Translations under genes and position numbers: made by a program
Notes under the pieces: model-generated
The model's database searches: none
What the model saw: only the letters and a program-made list of their open reading frames with translations
Told to the model about the DNA's origin: nothing
Part shown: positions 1 through 61,343 of the stretch, one piece after another
How the letters are laid out: each line of letters begins with the position of its first letter
Numbering within the stretch: position 1 is the first letter of the stretch
DNA from: an uncultured virus (IMG/VR IMGVR_UViG_3300031555_001734)
Taxonomy: Duplodnaviria > Heunggongvirae > Uroviricota > Caudoviricetes
DNA length: 64,000 bases
Strand: one strand, 5' to 3'
Virus record (IMG/VR): IMGVR_UViG_3300031555_001734

Positions 1-5
1 GTTAT

Positions 6-38
6 AAAAAAATCACGGTAGTCCGAAGACTACCGTGA
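6..38 (-). terminator. Intrinsic terminator of integrase gene
   Basis: 11-bp stem tcacggtagtc/gactaccgtga with minus-strand TTCG loop, then a minus-strand T7 run; overlaps the integrase stop. Confidence 0.85.
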
Positions 39-1661
39 GTCGGTGTGCAGTTGGGAGATCAGTACAAACCCGTCTGCGGTAAGGTAAATTATCGCAGGGG
101 GTTCGTACAGCTCCCCTATGGTGGAGCTTAGGGGAGTGAATACGAACCCATCCACGGGGCCGGAATCGGCTGATGACTCCTCTGAAAGTGGGTCTAACTG
201 GACTGTTTTACCCTTTTCTGTGAAGTGATAGTCGATTCGGATCTTGTCATCCCAAAGGTAGACAGTCTTCACAAATGTATTGATAAGCGTTTTGCGGTAG
301 GCAATATCATCGATGTCGCCGTCACGCAATTTTTCCATCGAGTAGATTATCCGCTCCTTCTCGATGGGCTTCGCCATTGCTCTGGCAACGGTCAGGGATT
401 TCTCCAAAGCTTCGATCTCGCCTTCGAGCTCCAGCAAGCGATCCTTGGTGGTGGCCGTAATAATTCCCTGTTCGATAGCTGCAAGGATATTCTTTGCGGC
501 TTTTTTCTTTTCCGCCAGTTGGTCTTGCATGGACGTGATCTCGACGGATCTGCGAGCCTGAAGCTGGAACTCCATGGCGTTGTCGGCAATCCACTCGATG
601 ACATCATCCTGCAGAACAATGGTTTTTGTCAGCTCAGCAACCTTTCGTTCGATCCAGTCACGCCGGACATTCTGTTTCTTGCAGGATCCTCCGGTTCGCC
701 GATCGTTGCATACATAGTAATAATGCAGCTCGCCGTGCTTGCCGGTACCGGAAATACCGACCATGAAGGAGTTGCAATGACCGCACTTCAATTTGCCGGT
801 GAGCAAATAATCGGCATTGGCCCGCGGTCTGCCCTGGGGATTCTTCTTTGTAGTGAGTTTCTGCTGCACGGCGTAGAACACCTCCTTGGATACAATGGCC
901 GGGACTCCGCCTTCTTTTACGACCCCGCCGTACTTATAGGTGCCGATGTAGTTTTCATTTTTTAACAGCCGGTGGAAGCTGCCCTTGTTCCAGGCGTTTC
1001 CTTTTGATGTTTTGAATCCCCGGCGGTTCAGATCCAGAGCGATACTGGCAAAGGTTTCGTCGTTAAGAAAACGCTCGAAGATCTCTGCGACAACGGGTGC
1101 GGTGACTTCGTCCAGACCATAGTAGCCTTCCACATTCTTGTAGCCGAAAGGCAACCTGCCATTGACCTTACAGGCTTCGGCATTGTCCATCAGGCCACGC
1201 CGGATATCCTCGGCCATGTTCTCCGAATAGAACTGGTTTACGTTCATCATGGTACGCAGGGCGAAGCGGCCGGCAGCAGTGTTGCCGAATTCTTCTTTTG
1301 CGTAGAAGGTGCGGATGCCGTATGTTTCCAGTTTGTTTTCGTAGCTCAGCGCATTGAGCATATTTCTGGCAATTCGGTTCGACTTGTATGCAATGACCAC
1401 GGAGAACTTTCGCTTCTCCGCATCACGCATCATTTTCTGGAAATTGGTCCGCTTATCCGTCTTGCCGCTGATGGCTTTATCTGCGTAGACCTCAATTATC
1501 TGGATATTGTTCGCAAGTGCGAATGCCATGCACTCTTCTACCTGCTGCTCAATACTTTCTTCTTTCTGGTTGTGTGAACTGTATCGGGCGTAAATAACGC
1601 CGTAGGCTGACGGAAGAGTGCCCAGAGTAGCTTTGTTGGAATTGGTTTTGCGTGGTGCCAT
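30..1661 (-). CDS. int: Large serine recombinase (phage integrase)
   Basis: N-terminal IYARYSS catalytic motif, resolvase and recombinase domains, Zn ribbon LTGKLKCGHC...YYVC, coiled coil; SD-like GGGGGTG before ATG at 1661. Confidence 0.93.
   Translation of the reverse strand: MAPRKTNSNKATLGTLPSAYGVIYARYSSHNQKEESIEQQVEECMAFALANNIQIIEVYADKAISGKTDKRTNFQKMMRDAEKRKFSVVIAYKSNRIARNMLNALSYENKLETYGIRTFYAKEEFGNTAAGRFALRTMMNVNQFYSENMAEDIRRGLMDNAEACKVNGRLPFGYKNVEGYYGLDEVTAPVVAEIFERFLNDETFASIALDLNRRGFKTSKGNAWNKGSFHRLLKNENYIGTYKYGGVVKEGGVPAIVSKEVFYAVQQKLTTKKNPQGRPRANADYLLTGKLKCGHCNSFMVGISGTGKHGELHYYYVCNDRRTGGSCKKQNVRRDWIERKVAELTKTIVLQDDVIEWIADNAMEFQLQARRSVEITSMQDQLAEKKKAAKNILAAIEQGIITATTKDRLLELEGEIEALEKSLTVARAMAKPIEKERIIYSMEKLRDGDIDDIAYRKTLINTFVKTVYLWDDKIRIDYHFTEKGKTVQLDPLSEESSADSGPVDGFVFTPLSSTIGELYEPPAIIYLTADGFVLISQLHTDSR
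99..149. other. Putative attP site inside integrase 3' end
   Basis: Imperfect 51-bp palindrome: gggttcgta/tacgaaccc outer arms and ctccccta/taggggag inner arms around tggtggagct; minus strand reads ...GCTCCACCA, like a tmRNA/tRNA 3' end. Confidence 0.6.
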
Positions 1662-1680
1662 TCTGAGCACCCCCTTTCAA

Positions 1681-2244
1681 TCAGTTATCTTCGAGAGAGG
1701 GATGGATCCAAAGATCGATGTCATACTCTCCCAGGGTATTCTCGGCGAAACCGGAGTCAGAAGTGATAAGCGCCATGAGATCGGCATCGACGGTAAAGCT
1801 AATAACCTTTTGCTCGCTTCCGTCGGTCATGTCTGCTACAGCCCAATACTGAACTTCCTTGTACTGATCGAAGCCGTGATTCTGGATCAGATCGCAGACA
1901 CTGTAATAGTTCTGGTGGATGGTTGCGCTATTGCTGTAGCTGGGCTGGATCTTAGCCTTGATAACGGCGATGTTGTCGATGCTGTTGATGGTAACATCCA
2001 GGAGCTCGCCGAATTTGAGTTCGAGGGGCTCCTCTTCATTCTCGACAGGATCCGTCTCAGTAGTCATCGATTCGGTGGTTGCCGGCTGCGTTGTCTCTAC
2101 GGCCTTCGTAGGCTCGGTCGGCGCTTCGGTATCTTCGGTGTTGCCAAAGGCGCCCATGAGGATCACGACAACAAGAGCAATGAACCACCACTTCTTGTAA
2201 AACGGCTTCTTTATCTCCTGCTTTGCGTACTTTCCTTTTGCCAT
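1681..2244 (-). CDS. Membrane-anchored extracellular protein, possible superinfection exclusion
   Basis: KKPFYKKWWF plus a hydrophobic helix, T/E/P-rich linker, globular C-terminus; sits between integrase and repressor; AAGGAG SD. Confidence 0.6.
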   Translation of the reverse strand: MAKGKYAKQEIKKPFYKKWWFIALVVVILMGAFGNTEDTEAPTEPTKAVETTQPATTESMTTETDPVENEEEPLELKFGELLDVTINSIDNIAVIKAKIQPSYSNSATIHQNYYSVCDLIQNHGFDQYKEVQYWAVADMTDGSEQKVISFTVDADLMALITSDSGFAENTLGEYDIDLWIHPSLEDN

Positions 2245-2277
2245 ATAGATTCTCCTTTTGATGTCTCGCAAAAATAC

Positions 2278-2347
2278 AGTCGAATGTTAGATTATATCGT
2301 TCGACACAATTTGTAACTTTTTGTGATATAATTGACTTGCTGTCGAC
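2278..2347 (+). promoter_or_regulatory. Extended -10 promoter with Spo0A-box-like motifs upstream of the small antisense ORF
   Basis: TG-A-TATAAT at 2324-2332; TTCGACA (reverse complement of TGTCGAA) at 2300-2306; one-mismatch copies at 2278-2284 and 2341-2347. Confidence 0.55.
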
Positions 2348-2376
2348 GGCCAACATAAGCAAGGAGCCGTGATAAA

Positions 2377-2502
2377 ATGAAACAAGTCGAATTAAATGAA
2401 GAACTGCGCAACATGCTCATTGCAGAACTGATTGCGCAGCTTAGTCCAGCAGAAAAGGATCGAATCATCGCCGAGATAGAAGAAATTCTATCTGAGAGAT
2501 AA
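2377..2502 (+). CDS. 41-aa SinI-like putative antirepressor mimicking the repressor C-terminal domain
   Basis: AAGGAG SD at 2361-2366; MKQVELNEELRNMLIAELIAQLSPAEKDRIIAEIEEILSER; 16 of the last 27 residues are identical to the repressor C-terminus. Confidence 0.75.
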   Translation: MKQVELNEELRNMLIAELIAQLSPAEKDRIIAEIEEILSER

Positions 2503-2842
2503 TGTGGTCTTGTTCATCTGGGCTTAGCTGTTGTGCGAGCTCATTGATTCTGCTTAACCGTCCGTCTTCGGGTATCTCGGAGACGGGCGTTGTTTTTCTG
2601 TCCATAGGGACTTCGTAACCCATCAGCCAGGCTTCAGAAATGTTAAGAGCAAGGCTGAGTATTGTAAGCTTCGCTTGGTCTGGTACGTGTTTTCCTGAGA
2701 AGTATTGGCTCAAAGCACTCTTTCCCAGCTTGATTCCGTATTTCTCGCAAAATGGCTTAGCCGCTCTGAGAATATCAGCCTGAGACATATTCTTCATCTG
2801 GCTATACTGCTGCAGCCGCTGGCTAGTGGTGTAAGGCTTCAT
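2465..2842 (-). CDS. XRE-family HTH prophage repressor (CI-like, no S24 peptidase domain)
   Basis: HTH (MSQADI...LGKSALSQYFSGKHVP...LNISEAWLMG); divergent from a Cro-like gene; AAAGGAG SD before ATG 2842. Confidence 0.88.
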   Translation of the reverse strand: MKPYTTSQRLQQYSQMKNMSQADILRAAKPFCEKYGIKLGKSALSQYFSGKHVPDQAKLTILSLALNISEAWLMGYEVPMDRKTTPVSEIPEDGRLSRINELAQQLSPDEQDHIISQIEFLLSRR

Positions 2843-2867
2843 AAGCTCACTCCTTTCGCATGCCATT

Positions 2868-2896
2868 ATTATACACCTGTTTGAACTAAAGTTCAA
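2868..2896 (-). promoter_or_regulatory. Repressor promoter (sigmaA-type)
   Basis: Minus-strand TTGAAC (2891-2896), 17-nt spacer, TATAAT (2868-2873). Confidence 0.65.
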
Positions 2897-2910
2897 GAGA
2901 AAAAGCACTT

Positions 2911-2929
2911 AGGTTCAAAATTTTTGAAC
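2911..2929. promoter_or_regulatory. Operator O1 (AGGTTCA-N7-TGAAC)
   Basis: aggttca aaatttt tgaac; same dyad recurs at 2973-2991 and 3244-3262. Confidence 0.7.
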
Positions 2930-2937
2930 AGAAGGTA

Positions 2938-2966
2938 TTGCATTTTGGTTTTCAAGGTGTTATAGT
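2938..2966 (+). promoter_or_regulatory. Early lytic promoter
   Basis: TTGCAT, 17-nt spacer, TATAGT; flanked by operators O1 and O2. Confidence 0.75.
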
Positions 2967-2972
2967 ACATAC

Positions 2973-2991
2973 AGGTTCAACGACGCTGAAC
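2973..2991. promoter_or_regulatory. Operator O2 (AGGTTCA-N7-TGAAC)
   Basis: aggttca acgacgc tgaac just downstream of the -10 element. Confidence 0.7.
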
Positions 2992-3014
2992 CACCAAAGA
3001 AAGGAGGAACGACC

Positions 3015-3260
3015 GTGGAGTGCGAGTCCAATAAGATCCAATACGATTACAGCAAGCTCAACGGAAAGATCCGTGAGGTTTTTGGCAAGTGTTCTGCCTT
3101 TGCAGCTGCTATGAATATGTCCGAGAGAACTCTTTCTCTGAAGCTGAACAACAAACGGTACTGGAAACAGCCTGAGATGGAGCTTGCATGCAGCTTGCTG
3201 GGCATCTCTCACATTGAATTGTGGGATTATTTTTTTGTCCAAAAGGTTCAGACACCTTGA
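3015..3260 (+). CDS. Cro-like HTH protein (DUF739-like)
   Basis: YDYSKLNGKIREVFG...FA.AM.MSE.TLS.KLNN...W...YFF pattern; AAGGAGG SD; first gene of the early operon. Confidence 0.85.
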   Translation: MECESNKIQYDYSKLNGKIREVFGKCSAFAAAMNMSERTLSLKLNNKRYWKQPEMELACSLLGISHIELWDYFFVQKVQTP

Positions 3261-3262
3261 AC
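3244..3262. promoter_or_regulatory. Operator O3 (AGGTTCA-N7-TGAAC)
   Basis: aggttca gacacct tgaac overlapping the cro stop codon. Confidence 0.65.
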
Positions 3263-3281
3263 CTCTACGAAGGGAGAAAGC

Positions 3282-3455
3282 ATGAACGAGCATAAGTACC
3301 CCAGGATTCAGGTGAGCCAGATCCCTGAGTATGAGCGCAACGAGCTGGCAAAGATGGCCTTGGCTGTGACTGAGGCTGTATTCTCCAATCCCGGAGAGGA
3401 AGAACGTTATCAGGCATGGCTTTCAGAAAGAAAGCTGCGGGCCATGAACCGATAA
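3282..3455 (+). CDS. Small hypothetical protein (57 aa)
   Basis: AGGGAG SD, ORF MNEHKYPRIQ...RYQAWLSERK; fills the gap in the operon; not in the ORF track. Confidence 0.65.
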   Translation: MNEHKYPRIQVSQIPEYERNELAKMALAVTEAVFSNPGEEERYQAWLSERKLRAMNR

Positions 3456-3480
3456 AAATTAAATCGAAGGAGGTGCAAAT

Positions 3481-3873
3481 ATGAAAGGCGTGGTTTTTAC
3501 AACTGACGAGAAAATGTACGTCAAGGAATTCGGAGAACCGTTGTATCAGACCCTTGGTGAGGTCGTTGGAGGCTGGATTGAGGTAGTTCATGCAAGAGGC
3601 CTGAAATCCCCGTACTGCTTTATCGTCAATGAAGAAGGGCTCCTTAAGAAACTTCCCTTTAACACCATCGGTAGCGTCTGGTATCAGACAAGCAAGCACG
3701 GATGGCCGATCGTAGGCAACATTGTTGTCATGAAGGATGGTTTCGTCGACGGTGAGCCGGACGTTGTCGGACTTACCGACGAAGAAATCGCAGAGATCAA
3801 GGCAATCGCCACTCGGATCTCTGATGGAGCCATCGAGGAGGTTGAATCTCATGAAACACAGAGAATGCCCTGA
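3481..3873 (+). CDS. DUF3846-like phage protein
   Basis: L...VGGWIEVV...IVNEEG...LPFN...IVGN motif; AAGGAGG SD. Confidence 0.7.
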   Translation: MKGVVFTTDEKMYVKEFGEPLYQTLGEVVGGWIEVVHARGLKSPYCFIVNEEGLLKKLPFNTIGSVWYQTSKHGWPIVGNIVVMKDGFVDGEPDVVGLTDEEIAEIKAIATRISDGAIEEVESHETQRMP

Positions 3874-4414
3874 TTGCGGTTCTGCGTTGGATCCCGCCGA
3901 GATCTGTGATTGCAAGAAAAAAGAGGATGCTCCCGCTGCAACAGGAACATCCTCGAATGGAAACGATTGGCGTCGTGATTCCATTTCTAGTTTACCAGAT
4001 CAGTTCCGGGATGTCAACAATCTGCTCCGACTCAAGGAGATTAGAGAGAGCACCGGGCATATGGCAAAAGATGTGGCGCCGGTTATCCAGAACAGATTTC
4101 CTAAGTTCAATCGGCAGCTGCTCGCCCAGGCTGAAAATCCTGAGAAGTACGGCATAATCATCCACCCTGACGGACTTAAGGTTCTCTGTGATGCTTACGG
4201 CATCCGGCTCGGGGATCCTGAGATCCCGATCACTGTTGAGAAACAGGAGACTGTCAAGAAACCTGAGCGCCGGAAGCTCGGCCGAAAGCTTACCTTCCGT
4301 ATGACTGACGGGGATTTTGAGATCCTGCAGAAACGGATTCAGGATGATGGCTTCGACTCTGTACAGGCTTGGCTTTATGCCAAGATCACGGAATTGCTTG
4401 GAGGTGGCGCATGA
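3851..4414 (+). CDS. Hypothetical protein with N-terminal CPxCG..LDPxExCDC zinc finger
   Basis: Cys motif at start, coupled to neighbours. Confidence 0.65.
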   Translation: MKHRECPDCGSALDPAEICDCKKKEDAPAATGTSSNGNDWRRDSISSLPDQFRDVNNLLRLKEIRESTGHMAKDVAPVIQNRFPKFNRQLLAQAENPEKYGIIIHPDGLKVLCDAYGIRLGDPEIPITVEKQETVKKPERRKLGRKLTFRMTDGDFEILQKRIQDDGFDSVQAWLYAKITELLGGGA

Positions 4415-4677
4415 ACATCCCGGAACATCCTGAGATAGCCAGGACACTGGCGACTGGATACCCCCAGCCCGTCAAGGATTCTGACCCGGTCAACTGTACC
4501 GACTGCGGCCTGGAACTTGATGGTGAGGACACAGTATTCATTTATGACGGCGAGCCCTGCTGTGAGAACTGCTGCCGGGATCGCATCGAAGAAGAATTTG
4601 ACATGAGCTATATTGCCGAGAGGCTCGGGATCCACCATGAGTCCGCAACAGACTATGCAAATCATCGTGACGAGTGA
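4411..4677 (+). CDS. Small zinc-finger phage protein
   Basis: GGAGG SD; IPEHPEI...TGYP, CxxCG...CxxC. Confidence 0.65.
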   Translation: MNIPEHPEIARTLATGYPQPVKDSDPVNCTDCGLELDGEDTVFIYDGEPCCENCCRDRIEEEFDMSYIAERLGIHHESATDYANHRDE

Positions 4678-4963: not shown

Positions 4964-5917
4964 ATGATTCAGAAGGCCGATGCTATCATCACCGAAGCGA
5001 AGAAGATCCGCATGCTGGTTGCCGGATATCCCGGCATCGGTAAGTCCACCTTGGCTTTGTCTGCACCCCGCCCCCTGCACGTCGACATCGATCACGGTAT
5101 AGACCGTATCGAGCCCCGGTACCGCAAGGACTTTATTCAGCCTAAGTCCTACGAGGAGATCTTGGCCGATCTGGTTCCGGAGAACCTCACTGACTACGAC
5201 TCCCTGGTATTTGATACCGGCGGCAAGCTGATCTCCCTGATGTCCCTGTGGGCAGCGAAGCAGGATCCCAAGTACCGCCAGCGTGACGGTTCCCTGAGCC
5301 TGAAGGGCTACGGCGTTGTTGGCAAGGAGTTCAACCGCCTGATGGACTACTGCTTCTACGAGCTGGACAAGAACATCATTATCGTGTTCCATGCCATCGA
5401 GGATAAGGATGGCGACAATACCCGCCTCCGCATCAAGGTCGAAGGTCAGACGAAGAACAACGTCTGGGAGAACCAGGATCTGGGCGGTTTCGTTGAGATG
5501 TACGGCAATGACCGCACGATCGGCTTCTCCAACTGCGAGCGGTACTTCGCCAAGGGTACCCGCGGCATTAACGGTGTTATCAAGATCCCCACTCTCGGCC
5601 CCACTTCCCCCAACGATTTCCTGACCAAGCTGTTTGAACAGTACAATGCTAAGGCGGCAGCTGAAGTCGCTGAGAATCAGGCTAAGCAGGATGCCTACAA
5701 CGCCGCCATGCAGGCCGGTCACGAGATCATTGCCACCATCAAGGATGCGGATACTGCCAATGCGGCAATTCCCAAGATTAAGGCCATTCAGCATGCGCTT
5801 ACCTCTGAGCGTGAGATCGGTGTAGCGTTCAATGCACAGATCAAAAACCTGGATCTGTTCTACGATAAGGTGTTGAAGCAGTACACCCCTGCGCCTCCCA
5901 AAAAGGAGGGAGAATAA
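4964..5917 (+). CDS. AAA-family (Sak4-like) P-loop recombination protein
   Basis: Walker A GYPGIGKST, Walker B LVFDT; recombination module context. Confidence 0.8.
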   Translation: MIQKADAIITEAKKIRMLVAGYPGIGKSTLALSAPRPLHVDIDHGIDRIEPRYRKDFIQPKSYEEILADLVPENLTDYDSLVFDTGGKLISLMSLWAAKQDPKYRQRDGSLSLKGYGVVGKEFNRLMDYCFYELDKNIIIVFHAIEDKDGDNTRLRIKVEGQTKNNVWENQDLGGFVEMYGNDRTIGFSNCERYFAKGTRGINGVIKIPTLGPTSPNDFLTKLFEQYNAKAAAEVAENQAKQDAYNAAMQAGHEIIATIKDADTANAAIPKIKAIQHALTSEREIGVAFNAQIKNLDLFYDKVLKQYTPAPPKKEGE

Positions 5918-6844: not shown

Positions 6845-7368
6845 AGGGGCGGTTGAAGGATCTCACCTTCGGCCGTAACGGTGAGCAGCATATCACAGTT
6901 ACCGTCAAACAGGACTTCCGGGATGACTTCGATAAGCTCAAGGATAAGGATATCCGGGTGGAATTGAAGATATGGAGAGAGCCCAGAAGCAAAGATGCCA
7001 ATGCTTATTTCCATGTTCTGGTCAACAAAATTGCCGAGGCCCAAGGCCTCGGCAATGATGAAGTAAAGCGCAGTCTGGTAGTTGAATACGGAACCCTCGC
7101 CCGGGACGATGACGGTCAGCTGATCGGAGCTATGCTTCCGGCCGGAGCGGACATTGACCAATTCTATCCCTATACCCGACTGTATAAGACCATGGAAATG
7201 GAAGGCCGGGAATATGAGTGCTACCTGTTCTATAAACGCACCCACACCCTGGACAGCAAGGAGATGGCACGACTTATCGACGGAACAATCTACGTCGCCC
7301 GTGAATTAGGGATTGATACTGATACCCCGGAGCAGATTGCCCGGTATAAGGAGGAATGGAAAAATTGA
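6841..7368 (+). CDS. NinB/Orf-like recombination protein
   Basis: RS.DANAYFHVL..KIA and THTLDSKEMARLIDG...A.ELGI motifs. Confidence 0.7.
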   Translation: MKGRLKDLTFGRNGEQHITVTVKQDFRDDFDKLKDKDIRVELKIWREPRSKDANAYFHVLVNKIAEAQGLGNDEVKRSLVVEYGTLARDDDGQLIGAMLPAGADIDQFYPYTRLYKTMEMEGREYECYLFYKRTHTLDSKEMARLIDGTIYVARELGIDTDTPEQIARYKEEWKN

Positions 7369-7763
7369 GCAAAAAGAAGCTGATCCCCGAAGATGTCTAT
7401 TGCCCCTATTGTGGGAAAAAGGCTGAGTTTGTGGACAGTAGCATCGTCTACGGCAAGAGCTATGGCATGATCTACCTTTGCAAGAACTGCCTGGCTTATG
7501 TAGGAGTTCACAAAGGAACATCGAAACCCCTTGGCAGACTGGCAAACGCCCAGCTTCGCTACTGGAAAAATAAAGCGCATGAAGCGTTTGATCCGCTGTG
7601 GAAGTACGGTCGGTTCAAAGGTAGCCGTAATACAGCCTATGCGTGGCTTGCGAAGCAGATGCGCCTTCCGATTGAGGAAACTCACATCGGCATGTTTGAC
7701 ATTGATGATTGCAAGAAAGCGATCCGCATTTGCCGAATTGAGAGGGGTTATAACCGTTTCTGA
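7356..7763 (+). CDS. DUF3268-like zinc-finger protein
   Basis: CPYCG, YLCxxC.AYVGVH.GT..PLG.LA...LR...AH..FDPLW...AY.WLA...HIGMFD. Confidence 0.8.
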   Translation: MEKLSKKKLIPEDVYCPYCGKKAEFVDSSIVYGKSYGMIYLCKNCLAYVGVHKGTSKPLGRLANAQLRYWKNKAHEAFDPLWKYGRFKGSRNTAYAWLAKQMRLPIEETHIGMFDIDDCKKAIRICRIERGYNRF

Positions 7764-60539: not shown

Positions 60540-61343
60540 ATGCAAAATAAGCAAAAGCAATGGCAACTTTATTATCTGGGATTCTACGGAGAGTCGACCT
60601 CAGATATTGACGGTATCTGGGGACCGAAGTCCAGAGCTGCGACCGAGCAGCTGCAGAAGGCCGTAGGAATCAAGGATGACGGTATTTTCGGTACCCACAC
60701 TCGCAATAAGACAAAGGAAATGATTTCTGCGATTCAGGAAGTCATCAGCGGCAGCGGTGGAAAGAAGCTTACGATCGATGGCCTTGCTGGGCCTGCTACG
60801 ATGTCGGCTACGATCTGGTACCAAAAGGAGCACGGCCTGACGCCCAACGGACTTGCGGATGCTGAAACCCGGAAGTACATCAGTGAAAACTGTGGCCCTC
60901 AGGTTGGTGAGGACATAAATGTCCCTGGCAACGAATCTGCGACCGACATTCCTGTCGGTGACAAAAAGGAGACAACTGGCACCTTCTGGGACGAAATTCA
61001 GTATTTCACTCGGGATGAACTGAAGTGTAAATGTGGTGGGAGGTTTTGCAATGGCTTCCCGGCCGAGCCTCAGGAAATGACTGTCCGACTGGCAGATCGT
61101 GCCCGGAAACATTTCGGCCGTCCCGCTCATAACGTCAGCTTCCTGCGCTGCCGGCAGCACAATGCCAATTCCGGAGGTGTCGCCAACTCCCAGCACATGT
61201 ATGGAGAAGCAATGGACATTTATATTGAGGGCGTTACTGCGAACGAACTCTACAGCTTCATGAAGAAGCAACCGGAGGTCCGGTACACCTATAAGATCAA
61301 CAATACAAATGTCCACTTCGATATTCCTAAGGGAGCGAGGTGA
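60540..61343 (+). CDS. Endolysin: peptidoglycan-binding domains plus peptidase M15
   Basis: DGIWG/DGIFG/DGLAG PG-binding repeats; R...HN...GG..NSQH.YG.A.D...H.D. Confidence 0.88.
   Translation: MQNKQKQWQLYYLGFYGESTSDIDGIWGPKSRAATEQLQKAVGIKDDGIFGTHTRNKTKEMISAIQEVISGSGGKKLTIDGLAGPATMSATIWYQKEHGLTPNGLADAETRKYISENCGPQVGEDINVPGNESATDIPVGDKKETTGTFWDEIQYFTRDELKCKCGGRFCNGFPAEPQEMTVRLADRARKHFGRPAHNVSFLRCRQHNANSGGVANSQHMYGEAMDIYIEGVTANELYSFMKKQPEVRYTYKINNTNVHFDIPKGAR

Follow-up and report, generated by a model that had tools for sequence, protein, structure and literature searches.

The left end of a 64,000-nucleotide (nt) stretch of DNA from an uncultured virus of the Caudoviricetes (IMG/VR record IMGVR_UViG_3300031555_001734; the whole stretch is here called the window) is a phage lysogeny module comprising an integrase, a membrane protein, a small open reading frame (ORF), an XRE-type repressor and a DUF739 protein. 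The small ORF (41 amino acids [aa]; positions 2377 to 2502, plus strand) is convergent with the repressor gene (125 aa; 2465 to 2842, minus strand), and the ends of the two overlap by 38 nt (2465 to 2502). We propose that the small ORF encodes a SinI/AimX-like antirepressor that would cap the oligomerization tail of a TP901-1-type repressor, a reading that we favor with a probability of roughly 0.6. The assignment of the ORF as a gene for a tail-mimic peptide and putative antirepressor draws on the ORF itself, its Shine-Dalgarno (SD) sequence, its conservation and its homology to the repressor tail.

A preliminary description of this DNA, made from the letters alone, had reported a 41-aa plus-strand ORF with a good SD sequence and a 38-nt overlap with the repressor 3′ end, together with a gapless alignment of the two C-terminal tails in which 16 of 27 residues were identical. 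Both observations were reproduced. The SD sequence AAGGAG lies at 2361 to 2366 on the plus strand, 10 nt before the ATG, and the 16 identities were recounted by hand. BLASTP extended the match between the peptide and the repressor C terminus to 19 of 37 residues (E 8e-9 in a single comparison), and hhalign, given a profile of 30 peptides and a profile of 38 repressors, aligned the two with a probability of 96.3% (E 1.9e-9) over 31 columns that end at both C termini. AlphaFold2 modeled the repressor (mean predicted local distance difference test score [pLDDT], 90.3) as a helix-turn-helix (HTH) domain, a linker disordered at residues 86 to 92 (pLDDT below 50) and a tail of two helices, residues 95 to 104 and 109 to 124; it modeled the peptide (pLDDT 89.0) as helices 2 to 20 and 24 to 40 joined at an S-P turn. 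We conclude that the peptide mimics the repressor C-terminal tail in sequence and that both are predicted to be two-helix units.

Comparative data were gathered through the repressor, for which the protein collection held 115 relatives, many of them full length at 45 to 75% identity and with the tail conserved. Loci on viral or metagenome contigs numbered 167 (160 found with the repressor alignment and 7 with a single protein), and the repressor ORF was located in 164 of the 168 sources formed by these loci and the window. The related contigs derive from gut metagenomes, several of them named human gut, and from viral collections. A tail-only profile built from 28 repressor tails defined a "tail class" of 60 repressors, 57 of which had at least 130 nt of downstream DNA; these 57 loci are not independent, since they include the window and 4 loci identical to the window here, and they hold 30 distinct peptide/tail pairs. 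The same profile matched the antisense translation downstream of the repressor in 51 of the 57 tail-class loci and in none of the 97 loci with other tails. Moreover, in 55 of the 57 the convergent ORF is intact, in the same relative frame, and equipped with a start codon and an SD-like sequence, the exceptions being locus L089, a contig of 2.5-fold coverage with an in-frame stop, and locus L111, which has another layout with a 4-nt overlap. An SD-like sequence precedes all 30 distinct peptide genes, of which 29 start with ATG and 1 with GTG.

Selection on the small ORF was measured with pooled Nei-Gojobori counts over the 14 motif codons that lie wholly outside the overlap in 27 distinct sequences, the pairs being pooled and not phylogenetically independent. 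In the small-gene frame, the proportion of synonymous differences (pS) was 0.85 and that of nonsynonymous differences (pN) was 0.33, giving a pN/pS of 0.39, versus 0.92 and 2.0 in the other two frames. Variability over the same codons was 0.69 at third positions versus 0.39 and 0.26 at the others, and the repressor tail codons gave matching figures. A conserved antisense ORF in relatives and purifying selection outside the overlap, both of which the preliminary description had suggested looking for, were thus found.

The peptide family is also large. A word-based protein search with the peptide returned the peptide alone, and it was the later profile search that revealed its relatives: the profile of 30 peptides matched 209 representative clusters at an E value of at most 0.001, and 32 at no more than 1e-10, among 1.84 billion proteins. 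Nearly all of the 150 clusters listed are 32 to 85 aa long with the motif at the C terminus, and the few longer proteins, where inspected, were N-terminally overextended gene calls. One family member, P0193 (74 aa), carries the motif twice in tandem. A six-frame search with the peptide profile found no match in 399 genomes of the class of genome G001; it was run without a positive-control genome and is uninformative. Judging by its conservation and selection, we conclude that the small ORF is a real, selected protein-coding gene and the representative of a widespread, unannotated family.

The peptide fold gave little by way of further relatives. Foldseek returned no match for the peptide model, and VIA-align against 48,161 chains gave a best Z of 5.5, to ordinary helical hairpins, a list from which the absence of SinI and AimC is uninformative. 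Among the nonspecific hairpin matches was 7t5w_A (Z 4.5 over 35 residues, root-mean-square deviation [rmsd] 1.6; too weak alone), the oligomerization domain at the C terminus of CapH, an HTH repressor partnered with an M78-type protease. The HAAS domain (PF22564) was considered as an identity for the peptide and rejected, as it matched 1 of the 30 peptides at E 0.016 with 16 bits versus a cutoff of 27. Moreover, the peptide model has two helices and its partner is XRE type, not PadR, whereas HAAS, in the portions of its description available to us, is a three-helix domain with a GxP kink that is paired with a PadR-like winged HTH (PMC11237479).

The overlap is doubly coding. The stop codons of the two genes are mirror images about the dyad center at 2483/2484, and the last 12 codons plus the stop of both proteins are read from the same DNA, with the dyad core (...GATAAAAG-SC-CTTTTATC...) coding for (Q)IK-x-LLS on either strand. 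A repeat search found inverted arms of 45 nt at 2437 to 2481 and 2486 to 2530 that are 71% complementary, with AGATAGAA / TTCTATCT as their perfect core. Overlap length among loci is mostly 38 nt and otherwise 29, 32, 35, 41 or 44 nt, always 2 modulo 3. Nucleotide diversity is 0.296 in the overlap versus 0.505 and 0.469 in the flanks, as expected because both strands code. One variant within the overlap, G for A at position 2501 in DNA runs X2 and X4, gives the small gene a TGA stop in place of TAA and leaves the repressor residue (Ile) unchanged, and is hence silent on both strands.

Self-complementarity of the overlap averages 0.58 over 26 distinct loci and is 68% in the window, which, together with the 45-nt inverted arms, would also suit an ORF without function, the by-product of a palindrome that serves the DNA or RNA where the repressor gene ends, perhaps as a structural or termination element. 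The complementarity does not continue beyond the overlap, however, except as protein similarity. Among 26 distinct pairs, cognate and noncognate combinations of peptide and tail were about equally alike in DNA (0.466 versus 0.461 overall and 0.32 versus 0.31 at third codon positions) and in amino acids (0.396 versus 0.383), and likeness was higher within each group (0.48 among peptides and 0.49 among tails). Thus, outside the 38-nt overlap the "palindrome" is protein similarity and not DNA symmetry, and the ORF is therefore not a hairpin by-product. The by-product explanation also has against it the frame-specific selection, the conservation of the SD sequence, start codon, promoter and a separate strong terminator, the 209 clusters of such small proteins, and the character of the dyad itself, which is AT rich and not terminator-like, none being listed there by the terminator scan. 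We regard it as largely refuted and very improbable.

In the preliminary description, the two genes had been read as one imperfect palindrome that was born by inverted duplication and forces the pair to coevolve. What survives of the palindrome is the dyad-coded 38-nt overlap; its maintenance as DNA farther out does not. An origin by inverted duplication of the repressor gene 3′ end would fit the geometry, namely, the mirror-image stops and the constant frame relation. Forced coevolution found no backing, in that the cognate pairs carried no pair-specific signal. Since cognate and noncognate likenesses are so close, we conclude that the peptide and the tail are old paralogues, each under its own constraint, and that the DNA outside the overlap has not been kept symmetric. 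The small-gene family is ancient.

The position of the small gene is one that other phages use differently. As stated in the preliminary description, the repressor lacks an autocleavage domain and has no ImmA-like protease nearby: its only Pfam domain is HTH_3, with no S24 domain, and Peptidase_M78 was absent from the repressor, small ORF, membrane protein, integrase, MOR homologue (the DUF739 protein) and 11 more ORFs up to 8 kb. TP901-1 carries a Peptidase_M78 gene immediately behind cI and on the cI strand, as do the Streptococcus phages Javan235 and Javan249. In 68 of the 97 loci with other tails, an ORF of 100 aa or longer on the repressor strand starts between −60 and +200 of the repressor stop, and 18 of the 40 distinct products of these ORFs are Peptidase_M78. 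None of the 44 downstream proteins scanned in tail-class loci was M78 (of the candidate ORFs in these loci, 44 of the 73 downstream and 27 of the 66 upstream were scanned, picked by eye so as to leave out nested and duplicate frames). Because other-tail loci carry M78 where tail-class loci carry the peptide, we conclude that peptide and protease genes are alternatives at one position, and this alternative occupancy would fit a shared task of repressor inactivation. A DUF4258 protein follows the repressor in loci L047, L143, L146, L157, L161 and L163 and is a third occupant of the slot.

The proposed target of the peptide, the repressor, resembles CI of phage TP901-1 in its N-terminal part. The repressor N-terminal domain matched TP901-1 CI (6tri_A) by phmmer at E 1.2e-19, and Foldseek aligned the repressor with 8qao and 5a7l at template modeling (TM) scores, normalized to the target, of 0.92 to 0.95 and with 47 to 49% identity (46 to 49% among the fold matches to CI). 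PDB and fold matches stop at about residue 83, and only some 30 residues lie beyond the linker. The true start of the repressor is the ATG at 2842, which gives 125 aa and has AAAGGAG ahead of it. Divergent from the repressor, the DUF739 gene (3015 to 3260, plus strand; Pfam E 4.6e-20) encodes a homologue of MOR (6to6/6tri; E 4.6e-13), and 25 of the 27 divergent ORFs scanned in tail-class loci are DUF739.

The GTTCA-N7-TGAAC operators named in the preliminary description proved real. Exact sites lie at 2913 to 2929, 2975 to 2991 and 3246 to 3262, and at up to one mismatch there are 7 matches versus 2.2 expected, a number reached in none of 100 shuffles. GTTCA/TGAAC half-site operators are conserved in the repressor-mor intergenic region across the family. 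A repressor promoter-like site, TTGAAC-17-TATAAT (2868 to 2896, minus strand; 10 of 12 matches), has a layout conserved in related loci, and its −35 element overlaps the operator TTGAAC-N4-GTTCAA. The third exact operator, at 3246 to 3262, falls at the very end of the MOR-homologue gene and is reminiscent of the distal operator (OD) of TP901-1-type switches. We conclude that the switch is TP901-1-like, with a CI N-terminal domain and a MOR homologue. The preliminary description overlooked this context, in which an antirepressor, MOR, is already present, and likewise overlooked a terminator of the small gene that lies inside the repressor ORF.

Signals for expression of the small gene were found on both sides of it. 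An extended −10 promoter element, TGATATAAT, lies at 2324 to 2332 on the plus strand and predicts a transcription start at about 2339 to 2341; it has no −35 match and was hence absent from the consensus promoter scan. Of 32 distinct upstream regions, 30 have the pattern TGnTA[T/G]A[A/C]T at a distance of 47 to 62 nt ahead of the start codon. A short palindrome at the predicted start, CTGTCGACGG (2340 to 2349; family consensus CTGYCGRCAG), is a candidate operator. It was found by pattern in 21 of the 32 upstream regions, 7 to 8 nt after the −10 element (13 to 14 nt in three loci), and the remaining regions carry looser GCCGGCAG or GTCGAC cores. It is not enriched across the window (12 matches versus 7.4 expected) and is unlike both the GTTCA/TGAAC operators and the LexA (Cheo) box; an exact copy at 61148 was set aside, as it is inside a lysin gene. 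The Cheo box GAAC-N4-GTTC, with one degenerate position allowed, occurred in none of 35 distinct upstream regions, where we took the LexA motif of the hosts to be of the Firmicutes type.

Downstream, an intrinsic-terminator-like hairpin (2559 to 2589; 14 pairs, 9 of them G-C; −23.2 kcal/mol) and a T-tract (2590 to 2599) follow on the plus strand, inside the linker codons of the repressor, the stem being built from the codons of the conserved linker residues TP and DGR (TP...DGR). With a folding energy (dG) of at most −8 kcal/mol and a T-rich tail as criteria, a terminator was present on the small-gene strand in 31 of 34 distinct loci; the opposite strand had 15 such sites, which were weaker, and shuffles had 9. 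One hairpin is shared by 30 of these 31, where it lies +48 to +98 from the stop and has a dG of −13 to −31; in locus L101 the site is a different, weak one. RNAalifold on 28 sequences gave 12 pairs, 9 of them with compensatory changes; 94.9% of cells were paired versus 83.9% in shuffles, and 41 were doubly changed versus 12, values of which neither was reached in 500 shuffles. Slid registers of the hairpin were 39 to 58% paired. Read on the repressor strand, pairing dropped to 79.5%, and 54 G-U cells on the small-gene strand stood against 2 on the repressor strand, a bias from which it follows that the hairpin is selected in the RNA of the small-gene strand. At repressor residues ~82 to 98, the stem and T-tract of the terminator on the other strand fall on the TP...DGR residues and the ER(K) codons; RNA structure may be what conserves the protein sequence of this otherwise disordered linker. 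Rfam found no match at an E value of at most 1 on 2150 to 3100. We conclude that the small gene is predicted to form its own short transcription unit, with a −10 element at 2324 to 2332, an SD sequence at 2361 to 2366, an ORF at 2377 to 2502 and a terminator at 2559 to 2599.

A gut metatranscriptome (run X1) held a single contig on 1700 to 3300, of 222 nt, which covers 2381 to 2600 and so begins a few nt into the ORF and ends where the T-tract does. Run X1 contigs carry neither strand, ends nor level, and DNA contamination is possible, such that the contig is a hint only and the contig-free parts of 1700 to 3300 do not amount to silence. On the repressor strand there was no terminator-like site between 2465 and 2272, and repressor transcription therefore probably crosses the small-gene promoter, which could hold that promoter down in lysogens.

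The same facts can be read with the transcript, and not the peptide, as the main regulator: an RNA of ~260 nt, made head-on to the repressor gene, would lower repressor output, either because the two transcriptions collide or because the RNA anneals to the final 135 nt of the repressor mRNA, and the terminator would shield the rest of the gene. The genes are indeed convergent with no terminator-like site for the repressor strand between them; it is on the small-gene strand that the conserved terminator, located within the repressor ORF, is selected; repressor codons lie antisense to all of the 3′ part of the transcript; and the RNA contig lies on 2381 to 2600. However, purifying selection acts in a frame-specific way on the codons outside the overlap, and 55 of 57 loci retain the SD sequence and start codon; an RNA-only role needs neither the selection nor these elements. 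Moreover, in the AimX/AimC system, the consulted portions of a preprint report that recoding the antisense overlap was without effect whereas a start-to-stop allele abolished function (bioRxiv 10.1101/2025.11.23.689978). We consider RNA as the main regulator distinctly unlikely and note that a peptide role and an RNA role can coexist.

The favored reading, that the peptide is an antirepressor, would operate as follows. The repressor would need tail-mediated pairing to bind its palindromic GTTCA/TGAAC operators. The peptide would form a heterodimer with the repressor tail and stand in for the second repressor subunit, in the manner of SinI toward SinR and of AimX toward AimC, and would thereby break repressor oligomers. 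Loss of the oligomers would free the promoter of the MOR homologue, and MOR would lock in the lytic state. As the small-gene unit is head-on to repressor transcription, convergent transcription and antisense pairing may add a layer at the RNA level. We infer the binding, the loss of operator binding, the role in induction and a signal that would activate the small-gene promoter. The interpretation given in the preliminary description is thus supported in part; the dominant-negative action and the independence from RecA that it proposed are hypotheses, the latter set between the negative LexA-box result and the conserved palindrome at the predicted transcription start.

Several observations weigh against this reading. 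With MOR, the module already has an antirepressor, and the presence of another calls for an explanation. The promoter appears to be strong and to suffice by itself, and the RNA contig covers the transcript; if that RNA came from lysogens, the peptide is made without induction and is therefore no simple on-switch. Cognate pairs show no coevolution beyond that of noncognate pairs, and the structure models are of single chains and silent on pairing. Database searches with the peptide lent no functional support: among the 30 peptides there was no consistent Pfam family, PHROGs gave no match, the ESM Atlas gave no usable match and a PDB profile search gave one chance match (E 0.93). The Pfam SinI family (PF08671) in particular had no match at an E value of at most 1 to the window peptide, to the repressor or to any of the 30 peptides.

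In another reading, the peptide would bind the tail without being the trigger of induction, acting either as a constitutive modulator of the effective repressor concentration or as a weapon or shield versus related phages with the same tail, by cross-induction or anti-immunity. Cross-reaction is plausible, because a peptide resembles foreign tails no less than its own. The extended −10 element is strong with no recognizable SOS box, and the transcript is covered by the RNA contig. Trans-acting antirepressors with cross talk between prophages are known, as the consulted portions of one study report (PMC3121763). Nevertheless, linkage of the peptide gene to its own repressor is strict, and the gene takes the slot of M78, which points to control of the cognate repressor. 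We consider a modulator or weapon unlikely and prefer the antirepressor acting on its own switch.

The nearest precedent for such an antirepressor is the AimX-AimC-AimL system of the extended arbitrium phages of Bacillus (Kabel et al.). In the portions of the preprint available to us, AimX (29 to 80 aa) is encoded convergently to aimC, sometimes overlapping it, with a 30-bp overlap in phi106; AimX binds AimC's helical C-terminal oligomerization domain and blocks oligomerization and DNA binding; and AimX acts as a protein, not as an antisense RNA, and is likened by the authors to SinI-SinR (bioRxiv 10.1101/2025.11.23.689978). In the window as in that system, a short XRE repressor that lacks a cleavage domain is met at its 3′ end by a convergent small ORF that overlaps it, and a cro-like gene diverges from the repressor; the mechanism, shown or modeled for AimX in those portions, is presumed to be shared as well. 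The AimC structure 9iaq_D matched the repressor model at Foldseek rank 26 (E 0.059, TM score 0.47, rmsd 9.6), and the best matches of the model are TP901-1 CI. The differences are several. There is no aimR-aimP upstream, where the window has minus-strand membrane-protein and integrase genes instead, although no AimR-specific profile search was made. The small gene has no LexA box, whereas phi106 aimX is of the LexA-controlled type. The repressor N-terminal domain and its partner are here TP901-1 CI/MOR homologues. Further, the peptide is a detectable sequence homologue of the tail, and no statement of AimX-tail sequence homology was found in the consulted portions of the preprint. Finally, the overlap is here dyad coded, the transcript is ended by a conserved terminator inside the repressor ORF, and the family comes from gut metagenomes and viral contigs, not from Bacillus.

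SinI-SinR (PDB 1b0n) offers a second likeness, in that a small helical protein is homologous to the C-terminal oligomerization region of an XRE-type repressor and both partners are two-helix units. Resemblance of the full repressor model to SinR is weak (1b0n_A at rank 33, E 0.1), and the genes in the window are convergent and overlapping, whereas sinI lies upstream of sinR in the same direction. The present switch is, moreover, one between lysis and lysogeny and that of SinI-SinR one for biofilm formation. The discussion section of the preprint, in the portion available to us, says that the SinI mimic blocks the repressor oligomer needed for DNA binding (bioRxiv 10.1101/2025.11.23.689978).

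With the CI/MOR switches of TP901-1 (Lactococcus) and phi13 (Staphylococcus), the window has in common the CI N-terminal domain, the MOR homologue, the three related palindromic operators, a serine integrase at the left end and a repressor without a cleavage domain. MOR binds the CI N-terminal domain. TP901-1 CI is 180 aa long, with a helical C-terminal domain 1 (CTD1; the dimerization hook) and CTD2 (hexamerization), whereas the present repressor has 125 aa and a tail of ~30 residues; and the M78 metalloprotease gene of TP901-1 after cI, on the same strand, contrasts with the convergent peptide gene of the window. According to the portions consulted of one study, TP901-1 CI has neither a cleavage site nor a peptidase domain, and its RecA-dependent induction is not understood (PMC11149083). 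With ImmR/ImmA the window shares an accessory gene immediately 3′ of the repressor, with the presumed task of inactivating a repressor that does not cleave itself, but there is no protease here and the proposed action is stoichiometric capping, not cleavage. The LexA-controlled antirepressors of Gifsy (PMC3121763) and the modules of transcription factor and small ORF (TF-smORF; PMC10432266) are alike in that small proteins inactivate noncleavable repressors by binding; they have unrelated sequences and other layouts, and the portions of these papers that we consulted report no mimicry of a repressor's own domain. A search of the literature on small antirepressors, mimics of oligomerization domains and convergent overlapping repressor/antirepressor genes found nothing that describes the present family.

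A wider and more tentative reading, which we put forward as a possibility and not as an expectation, is that CI, MOR and the tail mimic form a self-contained three-protein switch. Inverted duplication of its 3′ end would have given the repressor gene its own antirepressor, and the dual-coding palindrome, with QIK-x-LLS read from both strands, would lock the two genes together. The mRNA of the mimic would double as a terminator-limited brake, both antisense and by convergent transcription, and so create a second bistable loop, and a sensor at the start-site palindrome, not RecA/LexA, would decide induction. If true, this would explain concretely, in one branch, how induction comes about in TP901-1-type switches whose CI is noncleavable. 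Many temperate phages of Gram-positive gut bacteria carry repressors that are incapable of self-cleavage, and the family suggests a compact and testable answer to induction of the TP901-1 type: a copy, 36 to 49 residues long, of the repressor pairing tail, encoded in the slot that relatives use for an ImmA-type protease. A single dyad encodes two homologous peptides, one on each strand, with diversity lowered from ~0.5 to 0.3 and codon choices forced, and RNA structure would shape protein where the linker codons of one gene house the terminator of the other, which probably explains the conserved TP...DGR. A peptide family of 209 clusters that is absent from Pfam and PHROGs also means that such genes are missed in annotation. 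In practical terms, there would be use for a small protein able to induce, on demand, the prophages of uncultivated Clostridia-like hosts in the gut.

Convergent small ORFs are conserved in other repressor subfamilies as well (L007/L042, L038/L116/L117, L063/L068, L134/L138/L147, L111 and L152), where they lie directly after the repressor gene or overlap it slightly, some without overlap. Similarity to their own tails, judged with 2000 shuffles, gave p values of 0.009 to 0.03 for L007, L042 and L038 and was not significant for the rest; as the similarity is marginal at best, we do not claim mimicry in these subfamilies.

The remainder of the module lies to the left of the small gene. A large serine integrase is encoded at 30 to 1670 on the minus strand (Pfam Resolvase, Recombinase and Zn_ribbon_recom), and between it and the small gene, downstream of the repressor and on the same strand, is the gene for a membrane-anchored protein (1681 to 2244, minus strand; no Pfam family). 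This protein matched phrog_28892 at 1.2e-26 and, weakly, PHROGs resembling superinfection exclusion (Sie) proteins at 2.4e-6 and 7e-4, and its place in related loci is taken by varied small membrane, SHOCT, bPH, SWIM or LRR proteins. Upstream of the small-gene −10 element, an inverted repeat at 2272 to 2312 (GTCGAA...TTCGAC) surrounds the AT-rich block TGTTAGATTATATC, and similar GTCGAA/TTGTCA and TGTTAT-ATTATAT blocks recur in related loci; the repeat might serve as a further operator or as a promoter that drives the membrane-protein gene leftward. Megablast of window positions 1 to 4500 against phage records gave no match. To the right, early genes encode DUF3846 (3481 to 3873), an AAA_24 ATPase (4964 to 5917) and a DUF3268 zinc-finger protein (7356 to 7763), and a lysin-like ORF stands at 60540 to 61343, from which we conclude that the phage occupies most of the window.

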